This document shows positions 24,011 to 30,062 of a stretch of 64,000 nucleotides of DNA, piece by piece. The first letter of the stretch is position 1; each line of letters opens with the position of its first letter. The position numbers and the translations under genes were made by a program. Source of the DNA: Ignavibacteriota bacterium (GTDB lineage: Bacteria > Bacteroidota > Ignavibacteria > UBA10030); assembly GCA_963790045.1 (NCBI GenBank), contig CAWBMS010000008.1, forward strand, positions 133,126-197,125, written 5' to 3'. The notes beneath the pieces are model-generated. The model was not told where the DNA came from. It made no database searches and worked only from the letters and a program-made list of their open reading frames with translations.

Positions 24011-24027
24011 GAGGTATTTCCCTGAAT

Positions 24028-24257
24028 GTGACCGTCACCCACTCCGTTTAATCTAAGCTGGTGACGGTCACATGCTCTGTTCTCAATTCGTGACCGTCAC
24101 CTACTCCGTCTAAGCCAAGCTGGTGACAGTCACATGCTCTGTTCTCGATTCGTGACATTCACCTACTCCGTTTAAGCCAAGCTGGTGACGACCACACCCC
24201 CGGCTTAAATTGTGACCGTCACTCGCGCTGTTTTAGCTTGGTAAGTGATGGTCACAT
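24028..24257. repeat. REP palindrome array (GTGACCGTCAC / GTGACGGTCAC alternating, about 4 units)
   Basis: Perfect 11-nt palindromic cores alternate in orientation at spacings of about 30 nt. Confidence 0.8.
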
Positions 24258-24267
24258 AATCCTTTTG

Positions 24268-24843
24268 TTACGAAAAAATATATTTCTCTATTTTGTATTT
24301 ATCCTCCGCCTGATACAATTCAACAAATTGTTGATACGTATTATTTTGAGAGAACTGTTCCAATACAATTTCCGGATGGATGAATTGTATCGGTATATCT
24401 CCGTAATATTCTTTGCAACTGCTAAATTGCCAATGCTGTGGCTGGGAAACAAGTTTCGCCCGAACAGGATTCAGATGGATATACCGCGAAAGATGAAGAA
24501 GATACTCGTTCTCTTCAATCTGTCGTAATTTATATTTTCCATCGAACAAATGCCCCGTCCGCTGCTGTTCCAAATTAACGGCCTTCACATATCCGTTACA
24601 AAGTTTTGCAATAAATTGCGACAACCCGTTTGCGTCGAGTTGTTGAAGAATGAAATGATAATGATTGGGCATAAGACAGTAGGCGATCATTTTGACAGCA
24701 GCTGGAGCGAGTGCATTTTGCATGCGTTCGAGGAACATTTGATATTGGTAGGGATGGAAAAATATAGAAGAATGATTGTTACCACGATTATACACATGGA
24801 AGTAAGAATCAACAGAAGCAAGATATTTTGTTTTGATGGACAT
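24268..24843 (-). CDS. REP-associated tyrosine transposase (RAYT, IS200-like Y1/HUH)
   Basis: It has the HUH motif CLMPNHYHFIL and a conserved Tyr region, and is flanked on both sides by GTGACCGTCAC REP arrays. Confidence 0.8.
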   Translation of the reverse strand: MSIKTKYLASVDSYFHVYNRGNNHSSIFFHPYQYQMFLERMQNALAPAAVKMIAYCLMPNHYHFILQQLDANGLSQFIAKLCNGYVKAVNLEQQRTGHLFDGKYKLRQIEENEYLLHLSRYIHLNPVRAKLVSQPQHWQFSSCKEYYGDIPIQFIHPEIVLEQFSQNNTYQQFVELYQAEDKYKIEKYIFS

Positions 24844-24870
24844 CGACTAAATCTCCTCACCTGCTCATCT

Positions 24871-25180
24871 GTGACCGTCACCTACTCTGTTCAAGCTTAG
24901 CTGGTGACGGTCACATGCTCTGTTCTCAATTCGTGACATTCACCCACTCCGTTTAATCTAAGCTGGTGACGGTCACATGCTCTGTTCTCAATTCGTGACC
25001 GTCACCCACTCCGTTTAAGCCAAGCTGGTGACAGTCACATGCTCTGTTCTCGATTCGTGACCGTCACCTACTCTGTTCAAGCTTTGCCGGTGACGGTCAC
25101 ACTCCACCGGCTTAGCTCGTGACCGTCACTTGCTCTATTTCAACTTGGTAAGTGACGGTCACATGATCCGGTCACATAAC
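24871..25180. repeat. REP palindrome array, same family as 24028-24257 (about 5 units)
   Basis: It has the same GTGAC(C/G)GTCAC cores. Confidence 0.8.
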
Positions 25181-26043: not shown

Positions 26044-26115
26044 TTATGCATGTGACCGTCACCTACTCGTGCATGTGACCGTCACTCGCTTTGCGTTGAC
26101 AGAGTTAGTGACGGT
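26044..26115. repeat. REP palindromes (GTGACCGTCAC family), isolated pair
   Basis: The sequence reads gtgaccgtcacctactcgtgcatgtgaccgtcactcgc...agtgacggtcac. Confidence 0.7.
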
Positions 26116-26135
26116 CACAAACTTTGTCCGTTTTC

Positions 26136-26195
26136 TGTAAGGGTTGAAAATTTTCAACCCTTACAAAGTATTGTTCGGGAGATCATCTCCCGAAC
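26136..26195. terminator. two strong stem-loops at the distal end of the CRISPR array (possible array terminator)
   Basis: One has a 13-bp stem (tgtaagggttgaa aatt ttcaacccttaca) and the other a 10-bp stem (gttcgggaga tca tctcccgaac). Neither is followed by a clean U-tract. Confidence 0.35.
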
Positions 26196-26234
26196 AGCGA
26201 GGGCAATTACATCGAATTAAAAGTTACAACGTCT

Positions 26235-26790
26235 GTTTCAACTTCCTTTCAAATGGAATAACTGTCAGCGGCAGAGGCAACAAAAGTTGATTGCGAAACG
26301 TTTCAACTTCCTTTCAAATGGAATAACTGTCAGCATGACTTGCAATGATAACATCGTTTTCTTTGTTTCAACTTCCTTTCAAATGGAATAACTGTCAGCC
26401 ATAAATAATCATCGCTTTGATATTGTACTGTTTCAACTTCCTTTCAAATGGAATAACTGTCAGCACAATTCCGGAGCGGGAAGAACCTATAGCGGTTTCA
26501 ACTTCCTTTCAAATGGAATAACTGTCAGCAGAGGGCAAAGAGAAGAATTGCGATTGCTAGTTTCAACTTCCTTTCAAATGGAATAACTGTCAGCCGCTCA
26601 AGATGTTAAGCCGCTACTTAATCGGTTTCAACTTCCTTTCAAATGGAATAACTGTCAGCATGCTCGAAGTTCTTCTTCGTTCGCGCCTGTGTTTCAACTT
26701 CCTTTCAAATGGAATAACTGTCAGCCGCATAGGTCGTGAGCAACGTTGCTTGTAAGTTTCAACTTCCTTTCAAATGGAATAACTGTCAGC
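26235..26790. CRISPR. CRISPR array with 9 identical 35-nt repeats (GTTTCAACTTCCTTTCAAATGGAATAACTGTCAGC) and 8 unique spacers of 30-31 nt
   Basis: Repeats start at 26235, 26300, 26365, 26430, 26495, 26560, 26625, 26691 and 26756, and all are identical. The spacers are unique and non-repetitive. The minus-strand reading of the repeat ends in GTTGAAAC. Confidence 0.95.
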
Positions 26791-26908
26791 TTAGTACCAT
26801 GCAAATCCCAGTTCTTCATAGGGTTAGAGAATAAATAGTATAGAAATAAACGGGAAGAACGCAGTTTATTGAAGGGGAGATACCAAAAAATCCATTGTAC
26901 TTGGAATT

Positions 26909-26931
26909 GGTGAGTGGGCAAGCCCCTCACC
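26909..26931. ncRNA. stem-loop within the 250-bp cas12-like/array spacer region (candidate tracrRNA or scaffold element)
   Basis: The hairpin ggtgag tgggcaagccc ctcacc lies in the non-coding region between the gene stop (27040) and the array (26790). Confidence 0.25.
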
Positions 26932-27039
26932 TTCCGGATGATGTCGGCGAACGCCGCCATTCTTGCTATATCGGCAGCAAGATGAAACCACCCGTACCGT
27001 CTTCCGTTTTCACAGAAGAAAATGATTCTCTCTTAATTT

Positions 27040-28485
27040 TCAAAGAACAGTGCCGCCAGTATACTTGTGATACCATTCACATTCATCTTTGCGGGTTACC
27101 ACTTTAGTACTTTTGGCTATATTGCATGCGGCATTATAATCCGCATTGACGATTGTATCAAAATTTTTGCACGAGGGATTCTTACATTTAAATTCCGATT
27201 GACTGATACGTTGTTCTTCTGCTTCACTGCCACATTCGGTACATCGCTGGCTGGTATGATACGGATCAATACAGACCACTTCCATTCCTTTGCGGGCAGC
27301 TTTATCTTTGATCATCGTTTGTAATTCAAAGTACGACCAATTACGTAGAACAAAATCTCCCTGCAATGATTTTCCGTTTTCGTCTTTACCGTATCCTTCA
27401 AGAAGTTCTAATTTAATAACACCTGCGCGATACTTTTCTGCGAACTCGATAATGCGTCGCGAAACAGTGTGGTTATAAGTGCGAACAAAATGACGCTCTT
27501 TGTCCTTTAACGCTTCCATAGCTTTCAATTTCTTCCCGCGGCCTTTTCCGCCTTGCGTATTGCGCAAAGCAATTTGTAAATGCTTTCTGCGTTGCTGCAT
27601 TTGTGTACGCACACGTAAGAATTCGTTGCGGCTGCCAATTGCCAGACGGGCAAGCCCATCTGATAATGCACAATATGCCGGAACATTCAAGCCGAGATCG
27701 ACGCCAACCGAACGCGCTGTATCTAATACCAGCTTTTCTTCTTCAAATTTTATTGCGAGCAGTAAGAATATTTTTCTATCCTGCACCTGCATCTGGGAAT
27801 CACACATTTGGTAATCACCGGCAAGCACACGATCCATAATAATTTCGTTGCCACTACGGTCCCGTCCGAACCGTAATTCAAAATTCAACCCTTCTAACCA
27901 ATGCAACAGAACTTTTCCATCCTTCTTTTCAAACCGGAGACTTTCTTTCATAAACGGAATCGGCATGCCTTTTCGGAAACTACTAATTGCTCGTTGACCG
28001 CGGCGAACATCGAGGAGTTCCTTTTTAAACTTATCTACCACCGCATTATTTAATGCAGCTTTAATATAGGAAGGCATATCAGGGAATTCATCGGCAAGCA
28101 TTTGGTAGGTGGAGTTCTTTTCCCCTGTAACATAAAATGCTTCTGCTTCCGTGCGTGCCTCTAATGTTAAAGTGGCTTTTGCTTTGGTAAGTTTCTCTAA
28201 TTTTTTCTGTAATTTTTCTGCCGCGGCTTCGTCGGCTTCTTTCTTTTTTGCTTCTAAAGTTTTTTTATAATCTTCTTTAATTTCCTGCGCCTTTTCGGAA
28301 AGTTTTTCATCTGTCCATACGATTCGTTGTTTGAATGTGTCGTTAAAGTATTGATTGCTAACAATGAGATTTGCTGCACGGAAAACATCGTTGCTTAGTT
28401 GCCGTAAATACCGCCACGCCAAATTACGTTTTTCAGCATCTTGTTCATCTATCCATAATTCTATTTTACGGGTTATGATCGGCAT
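27040..28485 (-). CDS. TnpB/Cas12-like RuvC nuclease (481 aa), a candidate compact type V CRISPR effector
   Basis: RuvC-I is GVDLGLNVPAYCALSDG, RuvC-II is IKLELLEGYGKDENG and RuvC-III is NADYNAACNIAKS. A zinc finger CTECGS...FKCKNPSCKNF lies between RuvC-II and RuvC-III, the same arrangement as in Cas12f/TnpB. A Lys/Glu-rich coiled-coil insertion of about 60 aa follows the N-terminal WED-like region. It has the same orientation as the array and lies 250 bp upstream of it. Confidence 0.8.
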   Translation of the reverse strand: MPIITRKIELWIDEQDAEKRNLAWRYLRQLSNDVFRAANLIVSNQYFNDTFKQRIVWTDEKLSEKAQEIKEDYKKTLEAKKKEADEAAAEKLQKKLEKLTKAKATLTLEARTEAEAFYVTGEKNSTYQMLADEFPDMPSYIKAALNNAVVDKFKKELLDVRRGQRAISSFRKGMPIPFMKESLRFEKKDGKVLLHWLEGLNFELRFGRDRSGNEIIMDRVLAGDYQMCDSQMQVQDRKIFLLLAIKFEEEKLVLDTARSVGVDLGLNVPAYCALSDGLARLAIGSRNEFLRVRTQMQQRRKHLQIALRNTQGGKGRGKKLKAMEALKDKERHFVRTYNHTVSRRIIEFAEKYRAGVIKLELLEGYGKDENGKSLQGDFVLRNWSYFELQTMIKDKAARKGMEVVCIDPYHTSQRCTECGSEAEEQRISQSEFKCKNPSCKNFDTIVNADYNAACNIAKSTKVVTRKDECEWYHKYTGGTVL

Positions 28486-28526: not shown

Positions 28527-28608
28527 CTCACTCCGCCGACTTCCCCAAACGCACTCCTTGGAGAAGCACATTATATCCAACCGTTTTAAACTTGCTGTAA
28601 AGTTACAT
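28527..28608. repeat. copy A of an 80-bp conserved element, located 40-120 bp upstream of the cas12-like start
   Basis: It is near-identical to 29667-29747, which lies upstream of the RAYT gene. It contains gttttaaacttg, resembling the 5' end of the CRISPR repeat (gtttcaacttcc), and on the minus strand a TATAAT-like box (ggatataatg). Confidence 0.7.
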
Positions 28609-28914
28609 GAACGCCTTATTAAAAGCAAATAAATTACTTCTGCTTCGATCATAATATTGTATTTCCCAATAATCCATTATCCTCATGCCTGCGCTCGGTA
28701 TCGGTTGCCCAACATTGAATGTCCTCACCATGAATTTAATTCATTGCTCCATGTTGTGGGCACGTTCCGCCAAATAGACTGCGGATAAACGCAACGTGCC
28801 CCTGCCGATTTTAATCAATACAACAATATTCTGAAAATAATTTTCCATCGTAGGGACGTGATTCATCACGTCCATTTTATTTATTATATCCCTTTCTTGC
28901 ATCACGTCCTCATA

Positions 28915-29010
28915 ACGAATTTATGAATCAAATTAATGGATTTGATGAATCAAATTAATGGATTTGATAAATCAAATTAATGGATTTGATGAATCAAATC
29001 CCTACGATGA
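28915..29010. repeat. tandem array of a 22-bp unit containing the perfect palindrome GGATTTGATGAATCAAATCC (about 4 copies)
   Basis: The unit aatggatttgatgaatcaaatt is repeated. It overlaps the 3' end of the RAYT ORF, and a further copy occurs at about 29340-29380 inside the ORF. Confidence 0.7.
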
Positions 29011-29643
29011 TATATCTGCGTTGAACAATCGTTGTACACTGTCGGGATGTTCATGATCCATTGCCCACATCACAGGGTTTCCGGCAATATATTTACGAAT
29101 GTTGTTCAATTCTTTATCGCTGCGAATAACATGTTCGTAGAAACGGGATTGCCAACGGAAATTATCATATCCCGCATCGTGAATAAATTTCGTCGTCCGC
29201 GCTTTATAATGGCGAACAATTTTACCTAAGGTCAATTTTGGATTTTTCATCAATCCCCATTCATTCGTAGGGACGTGATTTATCACGTCCTGATTTATAT
29301 CCGCATGATTAACCACGTCCGAATGGTTCATCGCATCCCCGTTTAGGATTTGATGAATCAAATCCCTACGATGGTCATATTCCAACAATACCAATATTCC
29401 ATGAACGTGATTGGGCATTATGATATATTCATCCAATTGCACATTTGCAAAATGTTTTGTTATATCGTTCCAACAACGCTCTGCAATTATTCCAATCGGC
29501 AACAAATGGATTGCTTCGTCATTTATTTCACCAAACATATTTTCATGATTATGCGTGCAAATCGTAATAAAATATCCGCCCGGCATCGAGTAGTCGTACT
29601 CTTTTAATCGAATGGATTTTCTCTGACAACGTGTTGCAATCAT
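29002..29643 (-). CDS. REP-associated tyrosine transposase (RAYT, IS200-like Y1/HUH), third family
   Basis: It has the HUH motif IIMPNHVHGILVL and the conserved RWQSRFYEHVIR (Y-motif) region. It is flanked by GGGACGTGAT..ATCACGTCCC palindromes at about 28850-28880 and 29270-29300. Confidence 0.8.
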   Translation of the reverse strand: MIATRCQRKSIRLKEYDYSMPGGYFITICTHNHENMFGEINDEAIHLLPIGIIAERCWNDITKHFANVQLDEYIIMPNHVHGILVLLEYDHRRDLIHQILNGDAMNHSDVVNHADINQDVINHVPTNEWGLMKNPKLTLGKIVRHYKARTTKFIHDAGYDNFRWQSRFYEHVIRSDKELNNIRKYIAGNPVMWAMDHEHPDSVQRLFNADISS

Positions 29644-29666: not shown

Positions 29667-29747
29667 TCCACCGACTTCCCCAAACGCACTCCTTGGAGAA
29701 GCACTTTGTATCTACCTAACCGTTTTAAACTTGGTTTAAAGTTACAT
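29667..29747. repeat. copy B of the 80-bp conserved element, upstream of the RAYT gene
   Basis: It is about 90% identical to copy A (28527-28608). Confidence 0.7.
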
Positions 29748-29989
29748 TATCAAATATTAAAACGCAAGGGGAAGAAGAGAAAAGAGGCAATTGCTATGAA
29801 TTTTTTAGGGAATCAGGTAGAAACATAACCAAAATAGGTTTGAGTAAACAGTTTCAGAAGGTTCTCTTCACGACGATTAAACCGATATTCAACGTCTTTC
29901 GTTGTGCGCAAAATCCCTGATGCAAGCCCACAACGTGAAGAACTCTATAAAAAAGAAAAGGCAGTCACAAAAGTTGTGACTGCCGAGAG

Positions 29990-30062
<73 letters not shown>

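Follow-up and report, generated by a model that had tools for sequence, protein, structure and literature searches.

A Type V-F1 CRISPR–Cas12f Locus from Ignavibacteria with a Conserved tracrRNA Gene between cas12f and a Minus-Strand Array

Introduction

A lone effector accompanied by an array is the defining trait of the V-U3 group of CRISPR–Cas systems, now V-F1. Cas12f1 guides combine a long bulged stem with a pseudoknot stem of 5–7 bp, and their processing is typically performed by RNase III (PMC11246509). The best solved relative of the protein described here is Al3Cas12f/Cas12f-MG119 from Alistipes (PDB 9NZO and 9NZR), 9NZO being Al3Cas12f from an Alistipes contig (PMC13186708). The MG119 tracrRNA was discovered via small-RNA sequencing of a cell-free expression reaction and mapped to the Cas12f-MG119-2 system, and a working guide of this family consists of the tracrRNA, GAAA, and the last 16–17 nt of the repeat (e.g., UCAAGUGAAUAUCCAAC), followed by the spacer (PMC13186708). 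In the guides of Al3Cas12f and MG119-3, the 3' end of the repeat stands immediately 5' of the spacer, and the PAMs of the MG119 family are T-rich and located on the 5' side (PMC13186708).

Here, we analyse a locus of this kind in a 64-kb stretch of DNA, the whole of which is referred to as the window. A preliminary description had noticed a CRISPR array and had proposed that it is transcribed on the minus strand, co-directionally with a neighbouring cas12-like gene, from a leader at the end proximal to that gene. The reading that we favour, with a probability of about 0.8, is that of a V-F1 Cas12f locus with the minus-strand order cas12f, tracrRNA gene, leader, array, and two hairpins, which would operate through a tracrRNA-dependent crRNA mechanism. 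The strand and the leader end inferred earlier hold, and the functional map is revised, chiefly by a tracrRNA gene between cas12f and the array. The comparisons rest on a homologue set of 80 genomic loci, obtained by an alignment-based scan, together with contigs found by exact-protein look-up; a scan of genome contigs with the single Cas12f protein had returned nothing, whereas the alignment-based scan succeeded.

The Cas12f Effector

The minus-strand open reading frame at 27040–28485, which adjoins the array and had been called cas12-like, encodes a Cas12f protein of 481 aa, a type V-F1/V-U3-like effector according to Pfam, NCBIfam, PDB, and PADLOC. It matches Pfam Cas12f1-like_TNB (PF07282) with an E-value of 8e-16, scores above the cutoff of NCBIfam guided_TnpB (165 bits), and is recognised by the PADLOC models for Cas12f (E 3.6e-111) and Cas12u3 (E 4e-107). 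Its closest match among solved structures is the 'Cas12f effector' of 9NZO/9NZR (E 1.3e-93, residues 4–467), followed in the ranking by 8HR5, RhCas12f, AsCas12f, and Un1Cas12f. The protein shows the small size (about 400–550 aa) and the C-terminal RuvC domain interrupted by a zinc finger (TNB) that mark V-F1 effectors; the RuvC residues D262, E359, and D448 form an intact triad, and the zinc-finger residues C414, C417, C433, and C438 are present. In addition, the array is adjacent and, by comparative orientation, co-directional, beginning 249 nt past the cas12f stop, and two helices with the repeat are predicted computationally for the tracrRNA, a short one in the pseudoknot and a long, bulged one with weaker support. 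We assign the locus to the type V-F1 (formerly V-U3) CRISPR–Cas12f systems. Assignment to Cas12f2 (NCBIfam NF049972) was rejected, as the match reaches 118.5 bits against a cutoff of 450 bits and covers the C-terminal half only.

The closest homologues of this Cas12f come from Ignavibacteriales/Bacteroidota MAGs, and hundreds of its relatives are labelled 'transposase' or 'IS605 OrfB' in databases. For a Tol/PD40 protein at the end of the window, too, the named relatives, about 55% identical, belong to MAGs of Ignavibacteriales and Bacteroidota, and the host is probably Ignavibacteria/Bacteroidota-like. Among the PADLOC families listed for the window, 25 of 31, the cas matches are Cas12-type models and one 'Csx1' model. 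In 12 related loci, the Csx1 model finds exactly one protein per locus, just as the Cas12f models do, and its match is probably Cas12f itself.

The CRISPR Array and Its Orientation

The array occupies 26235–26790 and comprises nine identical 35-nt repeats and eight spacers; it is real, since nine exact repeats cannot be chance. The repeat unit reads GTTTCAACTTCCTTTCAAATGGAATAACTGTCAGC on the plus strand, in nine exact copies that include both terminal ones, and GCTGACAGTTATTCCATTTGAAAGGAAGTTGAAAC, ending in GTTGAAAC, on the minus strand. The start-to-start period is 65 nt, once 66 nt, and the spacers measure 30 nt in seven cases and 31 nt in one (26660–26690). All of this agrees with what had been noticed earlier about the identity of the repeats, the lengths of the spacers, and the minus-strand repeat ending. 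When the array was extended at both ends with up to 40% mismatches allowed, no degenerate tenth repeat was detected. Read on the minus strand, the spacer formerly numbered 8 (26726–26755) is indeed the cas12f-proximal one and becomes S1 (26755–26726), next to the leader, while S8 (26299–26270) is the distal one.

Transcription of the array on the minus strand is well supported, because three independent lines agree, namely the comparative anatomy of related loci, the experiments published on relatives, and the tracrRNA found here. Some 45 related loci have a co-directional array 65–520 nt (mostly 65–340 nt) past the stop codon of cas12f, with repeats of typically 36 nt and spacers of 29–31 nt. 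Moreover, in the roughly 20 related loci that have a degenerate repeat, it is always cas-distal and never proximal (e.g., L002, L006, L018, L022, L023, L026, L041, L043, L047, and L052), and in L008 the decay of the repeats progresses toward the distal end. Together with the published guides, these loci bear out the proposed co-directionality with cas12f and the position of the leader at the cas12f-proximal end. The opposite arrangement, in which the array would be transcribed on the plus strand with the hairpin/REP side as its leader, could appeal to the start of the plus-strand repeat, GTTTCAAC, which is shared by many repeats, and to the hairpins, which fold equally well on either strand. 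However, every comparative line opposes it, and the degenerate repeats of the relatives lie at the end equivalent to 26235; we consider this arrangement very improbable.

The ending GTTGAAAC had been likened to the 3' handle of a crRNA, a comparison that fails since Cas12f crRNAs carry their repeat-derived segment on the 5' side of the guide, where its final six bases pair with the tracrRNA; GUUGAAAC is the repeat–guide junction and the partner of a tracrRNA loop. A type I/III system, in which Cas6-type cleavage would yield a 5' tag from the final 8 nt of the repeat, (A)UUGAAAC, alongside class 1 cas genes, was considered and discarded, since the likeness to type I/III repeats is confined to the ending GTTGAAAC and the cas matches among the PADLOC families listed (25 of 31) are those given above.

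A tracrRNA Gene between cas12f and the Array

The 249 nt between cas12f and the array (26791–27039) had been described as an AT-rich leader. Their GC content is 43.0%, compared with 43.4% for the window, and they fall into two parts: a structured one at 26885–27020 with 50% GC, and an unstructured one at 26791–26884 with 37% GC. Only the latter can be a leader; most of the interval is a tracrRNA gene, as judged from its conservation and covariation. This gene is located on the minus strand at 26885–27043, with a core at 27020–26885, and is delimited by conservation, covariation, and a covariance model. By homology to the long Al3Cas12f guide, its 5' end may extend up to ~27043, in which case it would overlap the stop codon of cas12f, and the predicted length of the RNA is about 135–160 nt (about 27043/27020–26885).

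The region is conserved directly past cas12f in L002 (about 70% protein identity), L004 and L005 (60%), L085 (55%), and L008 (50%), and in a shorter form in L006, L088, L094, L007, and L009. RNAalifold predicts 30 pairs for five close relatives, and 16 of these pairs carry compensatory changes. The covariance model derived from this alignment matches the window at 26882–27020 on the minus strand and yields 10 matches in nine loci outside its training set, all in the sense of cas12f, namely L008 (E 3e-19), L094, L088, L006, L057 (two matches), L009, L007, L062, and L012. In a search of 824 kb on both strands, 15 of 15 matches were on the cas12f-sense strand, and they lay just past the cas12f stop wherever the position was checked. 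The minus strand is further indicated by conserved G·U pairs, because these would be A·C on the opposite strand, and the fold z-score of the region is −4.26 on the minus strand versus −2.81 on the plus strand. Rfam contains no family for the region, either at gathering thresholds or at E-values up to 1.

The architecture of the RNA can be followed along the minus strand. Stem 1 (CUUCUG-UGAAAA-CGGAAG, 27001–27018) is present in the MFE fold, and by inspection a hairpin is found at the same place, with different sequence and with pairing kept, in L002, L004, L005, and L085. It is followed by an invariant pseudoknot stem, CGGGUG (26994–26989) with CAUCCG (26940–26935), which includes a G·U pair and is unchanged in five of five relatives. 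Two clade-specific, covarying hairpins (26982–26961 and 26958–26943) are inserted in the pseudoknot loop, whereas in L006 and L088 the pseudoknot stem encloses a 6-nt loop alone. The main hairpin, GGUGAGGGGCUUGCCCACUCACC (GGUGAG...CUCACC, 26909–26931), is preceded by a conserved GAAGG motif; the base of its stem is conserved, its distal part covaries, and the motif recurs across the family. Finally, a run of six T (26885–26890) past the anti-repeat is the probable 3' end of the tracrRNA, and T-runs past the anti-repeat are found in the window, L002, L004, L005, and L094. Termination at this run is uncertain, because no hairpin immediately precedes it.

The preliminary description had taken the whole of 26791–27039 as leader. 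In a reading of this kind, with no tracrRNA, Cas12f itself would recognise and process the repeat in the manner of Cas12a. The lack of an Rfam match would suit this view. Nevertheless, the region is conserved, structured, and covarying with the repeat, the repeat itself forms no hairpin, and Cas12f1 systems rely exclusively on a tracrRNA (PMC11246509), so that a locus devoid of tracrRNA seems very improbable. Cas12a-like self-processing was discarded on the same grounds, the lone repeat being without structure (MFE −2.9 kcal/mol, z +0.41) and a tracrRNA being present; an unstructured repeat fits a tracrRNA-dependent system rather than a self-processing one.

Pairing between Repeat and tracrRNA

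The tracrRNA contains two separate stretches that can pair with the repeat. The short anti-repeat (SR/AR), GUUUCA (26983–26988, minus strand), is enclosed by the invariant pseudoknot stem and matches the six bases that end the repeat, UGAAAC, with perfect complementarity. For every locus, the loop that carries it was delimited by the stem around it and a ...UGAG motif further downstream, blind to the repeat. Across 33 loci, 85.1% of cells pair, compared with a shuffle mean of 65.6% (none of 500 shuffles reaches the observed value), and all six pairs show changes on both sides; when the partner is slid by one to three columns, pairing drops to 13–48% (at most 47.6%). The combinations encountered are GUUUCA/UGAAAC, GUUGCA/UGCAAC, GUUGGA/UCCAAC, GUUGUG/CACAAC, GUUUUG/CAAAAC, and UCUCA/UGAGA.

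The long bulged anti-repeat (LR/AR) is located at 26891–26906 on the minus strand, where UUCC-AAGUAC-AAUGGA follows CUCACCAA. Its UUCC (26906–26903) would pair with GGAA of the repeat and its AAUGGA (26896–26891) with UCCAUU, with an internal loop between them; the pairing in the window is short, 4 + 6 bp around this loop. In relatives, this element tracks the repeat, as in L002 (AAUGGAG/CUCCGUU), L085 (CAAAUAAC/GUUAUUUG), and L006 (CAAAUGGAA/UUCCAUUUG). The best helix of a locus with its own repeat averages 8.1 bp, compared with 6.4 bp for mismatched locus pairs, 22% of which reach 8 bp, and the evidence for LR/AR appears weaker than that for SR/AR. General pairing searches do not capture this bipartite arrangement. 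RNAduplex and RNAcofold comparisons of the tracrRNA with the repeat do not discriminate (−18.9 kcal/mol, with a shuffle mean of −17.1 and a value of −16.6 for the plus-strand repeat), and a search for anti-repeats of at least nine consecutive pairs, G·U allowed, on both strands between positions 24 and 31 kb returned only chance-level matches of 9–12 nt in coding regions, missing the bipartite anti-repeat.

Leader, Promoters, and Termination

What is left as the leader proper is a 94-nt segment at 26791–26884 on the minus strand, with 37% GC and a fold z-score of −0.15. Scans for sigma-70-type and TAnnTTTG motifs found no recognisable promoter for the tracrRNA or for the array. Sigma-70-type matches occur at the level of chance (9 versus 6.3 ± 2.2 in shuffles); one of them, TTGCCC-16-TACAAT (26921–26894), falls inside the tracrRNA, and the best one, TTGATA-17-TATAAT (27161–27133), was rejected as a promoter, because the codons for D-Y-N in the NADYNA motif conserved in cas12f give rise to it. 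The Bacteroidota-type TAnnTTTG motif is absent from the leader and ahead of the tracrRNA, while a TTTG-N19-TAACTTT match is found upstream of cas12f at 28629–28599, about 115 nt from its start.

This distribution of motifs leaves some room for the possibility that a single transcription unit, driven by the promoter candidate upstream of cas12f, comprises that gene, the tracrRNA, and the array, with the tracrRNA and crRNAs released by processing. The 94-nt 'leader' would then have no promoter of its own, which would alter the meaning of the word leader and leave the strand unchanged. The Bacteroidota-type match upstream of the gene, together with none in the leader, points in this direction, as do the T6 run with no adjacent hairpin and a leader that cannot be aligned with those of the relatives. 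However, the recurrence of a T-run past the anti-repeat in relatives speaks against a single unit, and, by inspection, the Alistipes clade carries a TAnnTTTG-like box right past the cas12f stop, suggesting that in this clade the tracrRNA has promoters of its own. A single unit is a tentative option, less likely than not.

On the other side of the array, the two strong hairpins at 26136–26195 had been proposed as a transcription stop. Both exist, with fold z-scores of −6.6 (minus strand) and −6.9 (plus strand), but as terminators they are weak candidates with one weak U-tract between them. Hairpin 1 (26172–26196, minus strand), identified in a terminator scan, has an 11-bp stem with six G–C pairs followed by AUACUUUGUA, passes a loose terminator rule, and is the first one met on the minus strand; it may be regarded as a weak candidate for the intrinsic terminator of the array transcript. 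Hairpin 2 (26136–26165) is a perfect 15 + 15 palindrome that lacks a U-tract when read on the minus strand; no strand is assigned to it. Terminator-like sites are no commoner here than in shuffles (3 versus 2.6), and textbook terminators stand right after the array in some relatives (e.g., L006, L026, and L047). Termination past the array is plausible in the window, because the next gene (25911–25183) is co-directional.

The hairpins were also considered as REP elements and rejected, since both are unique in the window and the true REP motif, TGTGACCGTCAC, differs from them. This motif is present in 18 copies at 24027–25163 and 26051–26119, compared with 0.19 expected by chance. The array sits between two Y1 transposase genes and next to this REP cluster, and the neighbouring Y1 genes look like REP-associated transposases rather than IS605 TnpA partners.

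Spacer Acquisition and the Age of the Array

The earlier remark that Cas1–Cas2 are missing locally is confirmed, as neither they nor Cas4 matched any of the 62 ORFs of the 64-kb window (among the PADLOC families listed, 25 of 31), and no adaptation genes recur in at least two of 12 related loci within 5-kb flanks. Cas14a loci of DPANN archaea, by contrast, carry cas1, cas2, and cas4. The uniform 30-nt spacers had been thought odd under these circumstances, and they turn out to be the norm among related loci. The source of the spacers was sought in several collections: the whole array gave only chance matches with phages (E ≥ 0.6) and no match with plasmids, the 5' 20-mers of all eight spacers had no match in IMG/VR, and no self-target was found within the 64-kb window, where the best spacer match has nine mismatches.

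An identical terminal repeat, from which a young or actively homogenised array had earlier been conjectured, is a minority state among related Cas12f loci, and not a unique one, as L005 has eight identical repeats. S1 (26755–26726) is the newest spacer only if acquisition occurs at the leader end. Three relatives that have one Cas12f and leader in common but different first spacers (L085, L086, and L087) were rejected as evidence for such acquisition, since Logan contigs assembled at k = 31, to which two of the three belong, cannot phase spacers across a 36-nt repeat. As for the locus itself, no second reliable copy of the array was found by exact look-ups of Cas12f and of the neighbouring 242-aa protein or in JGI metagenomes, where the 25 nt at the 3' end of the repeat gave 0 matches. 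The exact look-ups led to readable DNA only in Logan contigs of run ERR11594402. One of these, L001, contains cas12f, the tracrRNA region with one substitution, the leader, and then a single repeat followed by the same trailer. Its one-repeat form is most likely a collapse of the assembly graph, because Logan assembles at k = 31, below the 35-nt repeat length, although it could also be a genuine one-repeat variant. In a marine relative, an identical two-spacer array is present in six independent assemblies, and therefore some arrays in the clade are static.

The array of the window could itself be static, its guides no longer renewed by adaptation and passed on or moved only as a block, in which case the order of spacers would say nothing about their age and the identical terminal repeat would come from recent origin or recombination, not from ongoing acquisition. 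The invariance of the marine array, the absence of cas1, cas2, and cas4 from the window (PADLOC families listed) and of any that recur in the flanks of related loci, and the failure of the spacers to match phage, plasmid, and viral collections would all fit a set of this kind. Nevertheless, the rest of the genome could contain adaptation genes, eight diverse spacers kept strictly to 30–31 nt resemble the products of a Cas1–Cas2 ruler, and the degenerate distal repeats of relatives imply polarised growth at some time; a static array is a minority possibility. Far less likely is that spacers are gained, lost, or moved without Cas1–Cas2, through recombination or Y1-transposase activity, or that fixed guides serve a role other than defence. 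The context of this proposal comprises the identical repeats, the 30–31-nt spacers, the lack of protospacer matches, and the Y1 genes with their REP cluster, while the invariant array of the marine relative gives a hint toward a fixed-guide, non-defence role.

Proposed Mechanism and Significance

In the favoured reading, a V-F1 locus with tracrRNA-dependent crRNAs, the elements would follow one another on the minus strand as cas12f (28485–27040), tracrRNA (~27043/27020–26885), leader (26884–26791), array (26790–26235), and the two hairpins. Transcription of the array on this strand would give a pre-crRNA, in which each repeat would pair with the tracrRNA twice, through the short pseudoknot helix UGAAAC:GUUUCA and the long bulged helix UCCAUU...GGAA:UUCC...AAUGGA. 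Cleavage by an RNase of the host, which in systems with a tracrRNA is typically RNase III, and subsequent trimming would then release crRNAs composed of roughly the last 17–24 nt of the repeat as a 5' handle and the spacer-derived guide, with a predicted start inside the repeat, near UCCAUUUGAAAGGAAGUUGAAAC. Finally, a Cas12f dimer carrying the tracrRNA:crRNA duplex would cleave PAM-flanked double-stranded DNA. The processing enzyme, the cut sites, and the handle length are proposed by analogy with relatives and the literature, and we infer dimerisation, a T-rich PAM, the promoters, and the termination site in the same way.

The main value of these results lies in correct annotation, as databases label the protein 'transposase' and neither annotate the tracrRNA nor, in Rfam, contain a family for it. 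The strand, together with the tracrRNA boundaries predicted from sequence, would be what the design of a single-guide RNA needs for a compact 481-aa nuclease, a protein of an environmental Ignavibacteria/Bacteroidota clade that is ~40% identical to characterised orthologues. The tracrRNA is a clade-specific variant, with two extra pseudoknot-loop hairpins and the UGAAAC:GUUUCA short helix. Otherwise, the locus adds one more example of a V-F1 system with no adaptation genes and leaves the current picture of CRISPR biology unchanged.

Comparison with Known Systems

The genomic relatives of Al3Cas12f have the same order of cas12f, tracrRNA, and array, with 36-nt repeats and 29–31-nt spacers, and in this family the same pseudoknot loop pairs with the last six bases of the repeat. 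Nevertheless, relatives of the Alistipes clade are 37–41% identical to the window Cas12f, and the host is probably Ignavibacteria/Bacteroidota-like, not an Alistipes. The repeat of the window ends in UGAAAC, compensated by GUUUCA in the tracrRNA, whereas that of the Al3Cas12f family ends in UCCAAC. Moreover, the two extra hairpins in the pseudoknot loop of the window, unlike Al3Cas12f, are common only to L002, L004, L005, L008, and L085.

AsCas12f1 (7WJU/8J12), Un1Cas12f1/Cas14a1 (7L48/7C7L), and the CnCas12f1-like protein (8HR5) belong to the same family (E 1e-41, 2e-20, and 2e-70, respectively) and likewise depend on a tracrRNA with a long bulged stem and a short pseudoknot stem (PMC11246509), but they are more distant in sequence, and the stems of their tracrRNAs are of other numbers and lengths. 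The protein is also matched by nuclease-dead, transcription-guiding homologues of Cas12f (PDB 9N9C; PMC12259090; E 2.8e-45), which occur in Bacteroidota; they differ from it in that its RuvC triad is intact and in size, 481 aa against 365 aa.

The likeness to TnpB and its omega RNA in IS200/IS605 elements extends beyond the guided_TnpB cutoff that the protein passes, since the scaffold begins at or just past the 3' end of the gene and shares the pseudoknot core GGG...CC-GAAGG-UGAG...CUCAC. However, the guides of the window come from a separate nine-repeat array and not from a transposon flank fused to the scaffold, and no IS ends were identified at the locus. A TnpB/omega RNA element was rejected on account of the array and of a scaffold that ends in an anti-repeat and a T-run.

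Array content and variation among related loci

The GC content of two spacers of the window array, S6 (26400-26429) and S7 (26335-26364), is 27% and 30%, respectively, versus 43-53% for the remaining six, a difference suggesting that the spacers were drawn from at least two distinct target sources. In L001 (1780-1815), a Logan contig from run ERR11594402, cas12f, the tracrRNA region, and the leader are the same as in the window, apart from a single A-to-G change in the tracrRNA region, and are followed by a single repeat and then by the same trailer. This one-repeat form is probably a collapse of the array during assembly at k=31, or it could be a real spacer-less variant generated by recombination between repeats.

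In a marine relative (protein P0014, loci L088-L093), the array consists of two spacers and a half-degenerate third repeat, and does not differ among six independent metagenome assemblies. This locus adjoins HTH_17 and primase (Zn_ribbon_DnaG/AAA_25) genes, neighbors which suggest that it is a mobile element carrying a fixed guide set. In the Cas12f protein alignment A1, the first RuvC aspartate (D262 column) is replaced by Asn in 4 of the 36 close homologues (P0033, P0041, P0048, and P0057), which retain E359 and D448 and may be nuclease-impaired relatives.

Repetitive elements flanking the locus

Beyond the array trailer, 18 REP-like copies of TGTGACCGTCAC (with at most one mismatch) are found at 24027-25163 and 26051-26119, against a chance expectation of 0.19, for the most part as inverted pairs spaced by approximately 34 nt. 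This cluster flanks a gene resembling REP-associated tyrosine transposases (ORF 24268-24843, minus strand; NF047646, E 7e-19), and its final doublet lies 115 nt past the trailer. Hairpin 2 includes GGGTTGAAAA/TTTTCAACCC (26142-26159), similar to GTTGAAAC, with which the repeat ends, and to the complement of this ending, a likeness that is probably a coincidence.

Upstream of cas12f, at a distance of 516 nt, is a second RAYT-like Y1 gene (ORF 29002-29643, minus strand), accompanied by palindromes of its own, GGATTTGATGAATCAAATCC and GGACGTGATTCATCACGTCC. Direct repeats of approximately 100 nt (28532-28628 versus 29667-29767, 93% and 76% identity) lie on either side of this gene and, thus, the stretch immediately upstream of cas12f was apparently duplicated on both sides of an insertion adjoining tRNA-Met (29989-30062). 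A match to the Bacteroidota promoter pattern, TTTG-N19-TAACTTT (28599-28629, minus strand), lies within the duplicated segment 28532-28628, about 115 nt 5' of the cas12f start codon.

Possible signals around the cas12f stop codon

In Alistipes-clade loci L013, L018, L021-L023, L025, L026, and L051, a TAnnTTTG-type box (e.g., TATCTTTG or TATATTTG) occurs directly 3' of the cas12f stop codon, within the first 20 nt, and is a likely tracrRNA promoter in this clade; the window has no counterpart of this box. A second box, GTTCTTT(G/A)A(A/T)AT, is present in 11 of the 53 loci (the window, at 27038-27049 on the minus strand, L002, L006, L007, L018, L020-L022, L025, L036, and L039) and may mark the 5' end of the tracrRNA or act as a promoter element. 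The window, L002, L006, and L007 have this box at the cas12f stop codon or overlapping it, and in the Alistipes clade the box is found 21-27 nt 3' of this codon, the position at which the long guide (sgRNA2) of Al3Cas12f, the closest solved relative, begins inside the box.
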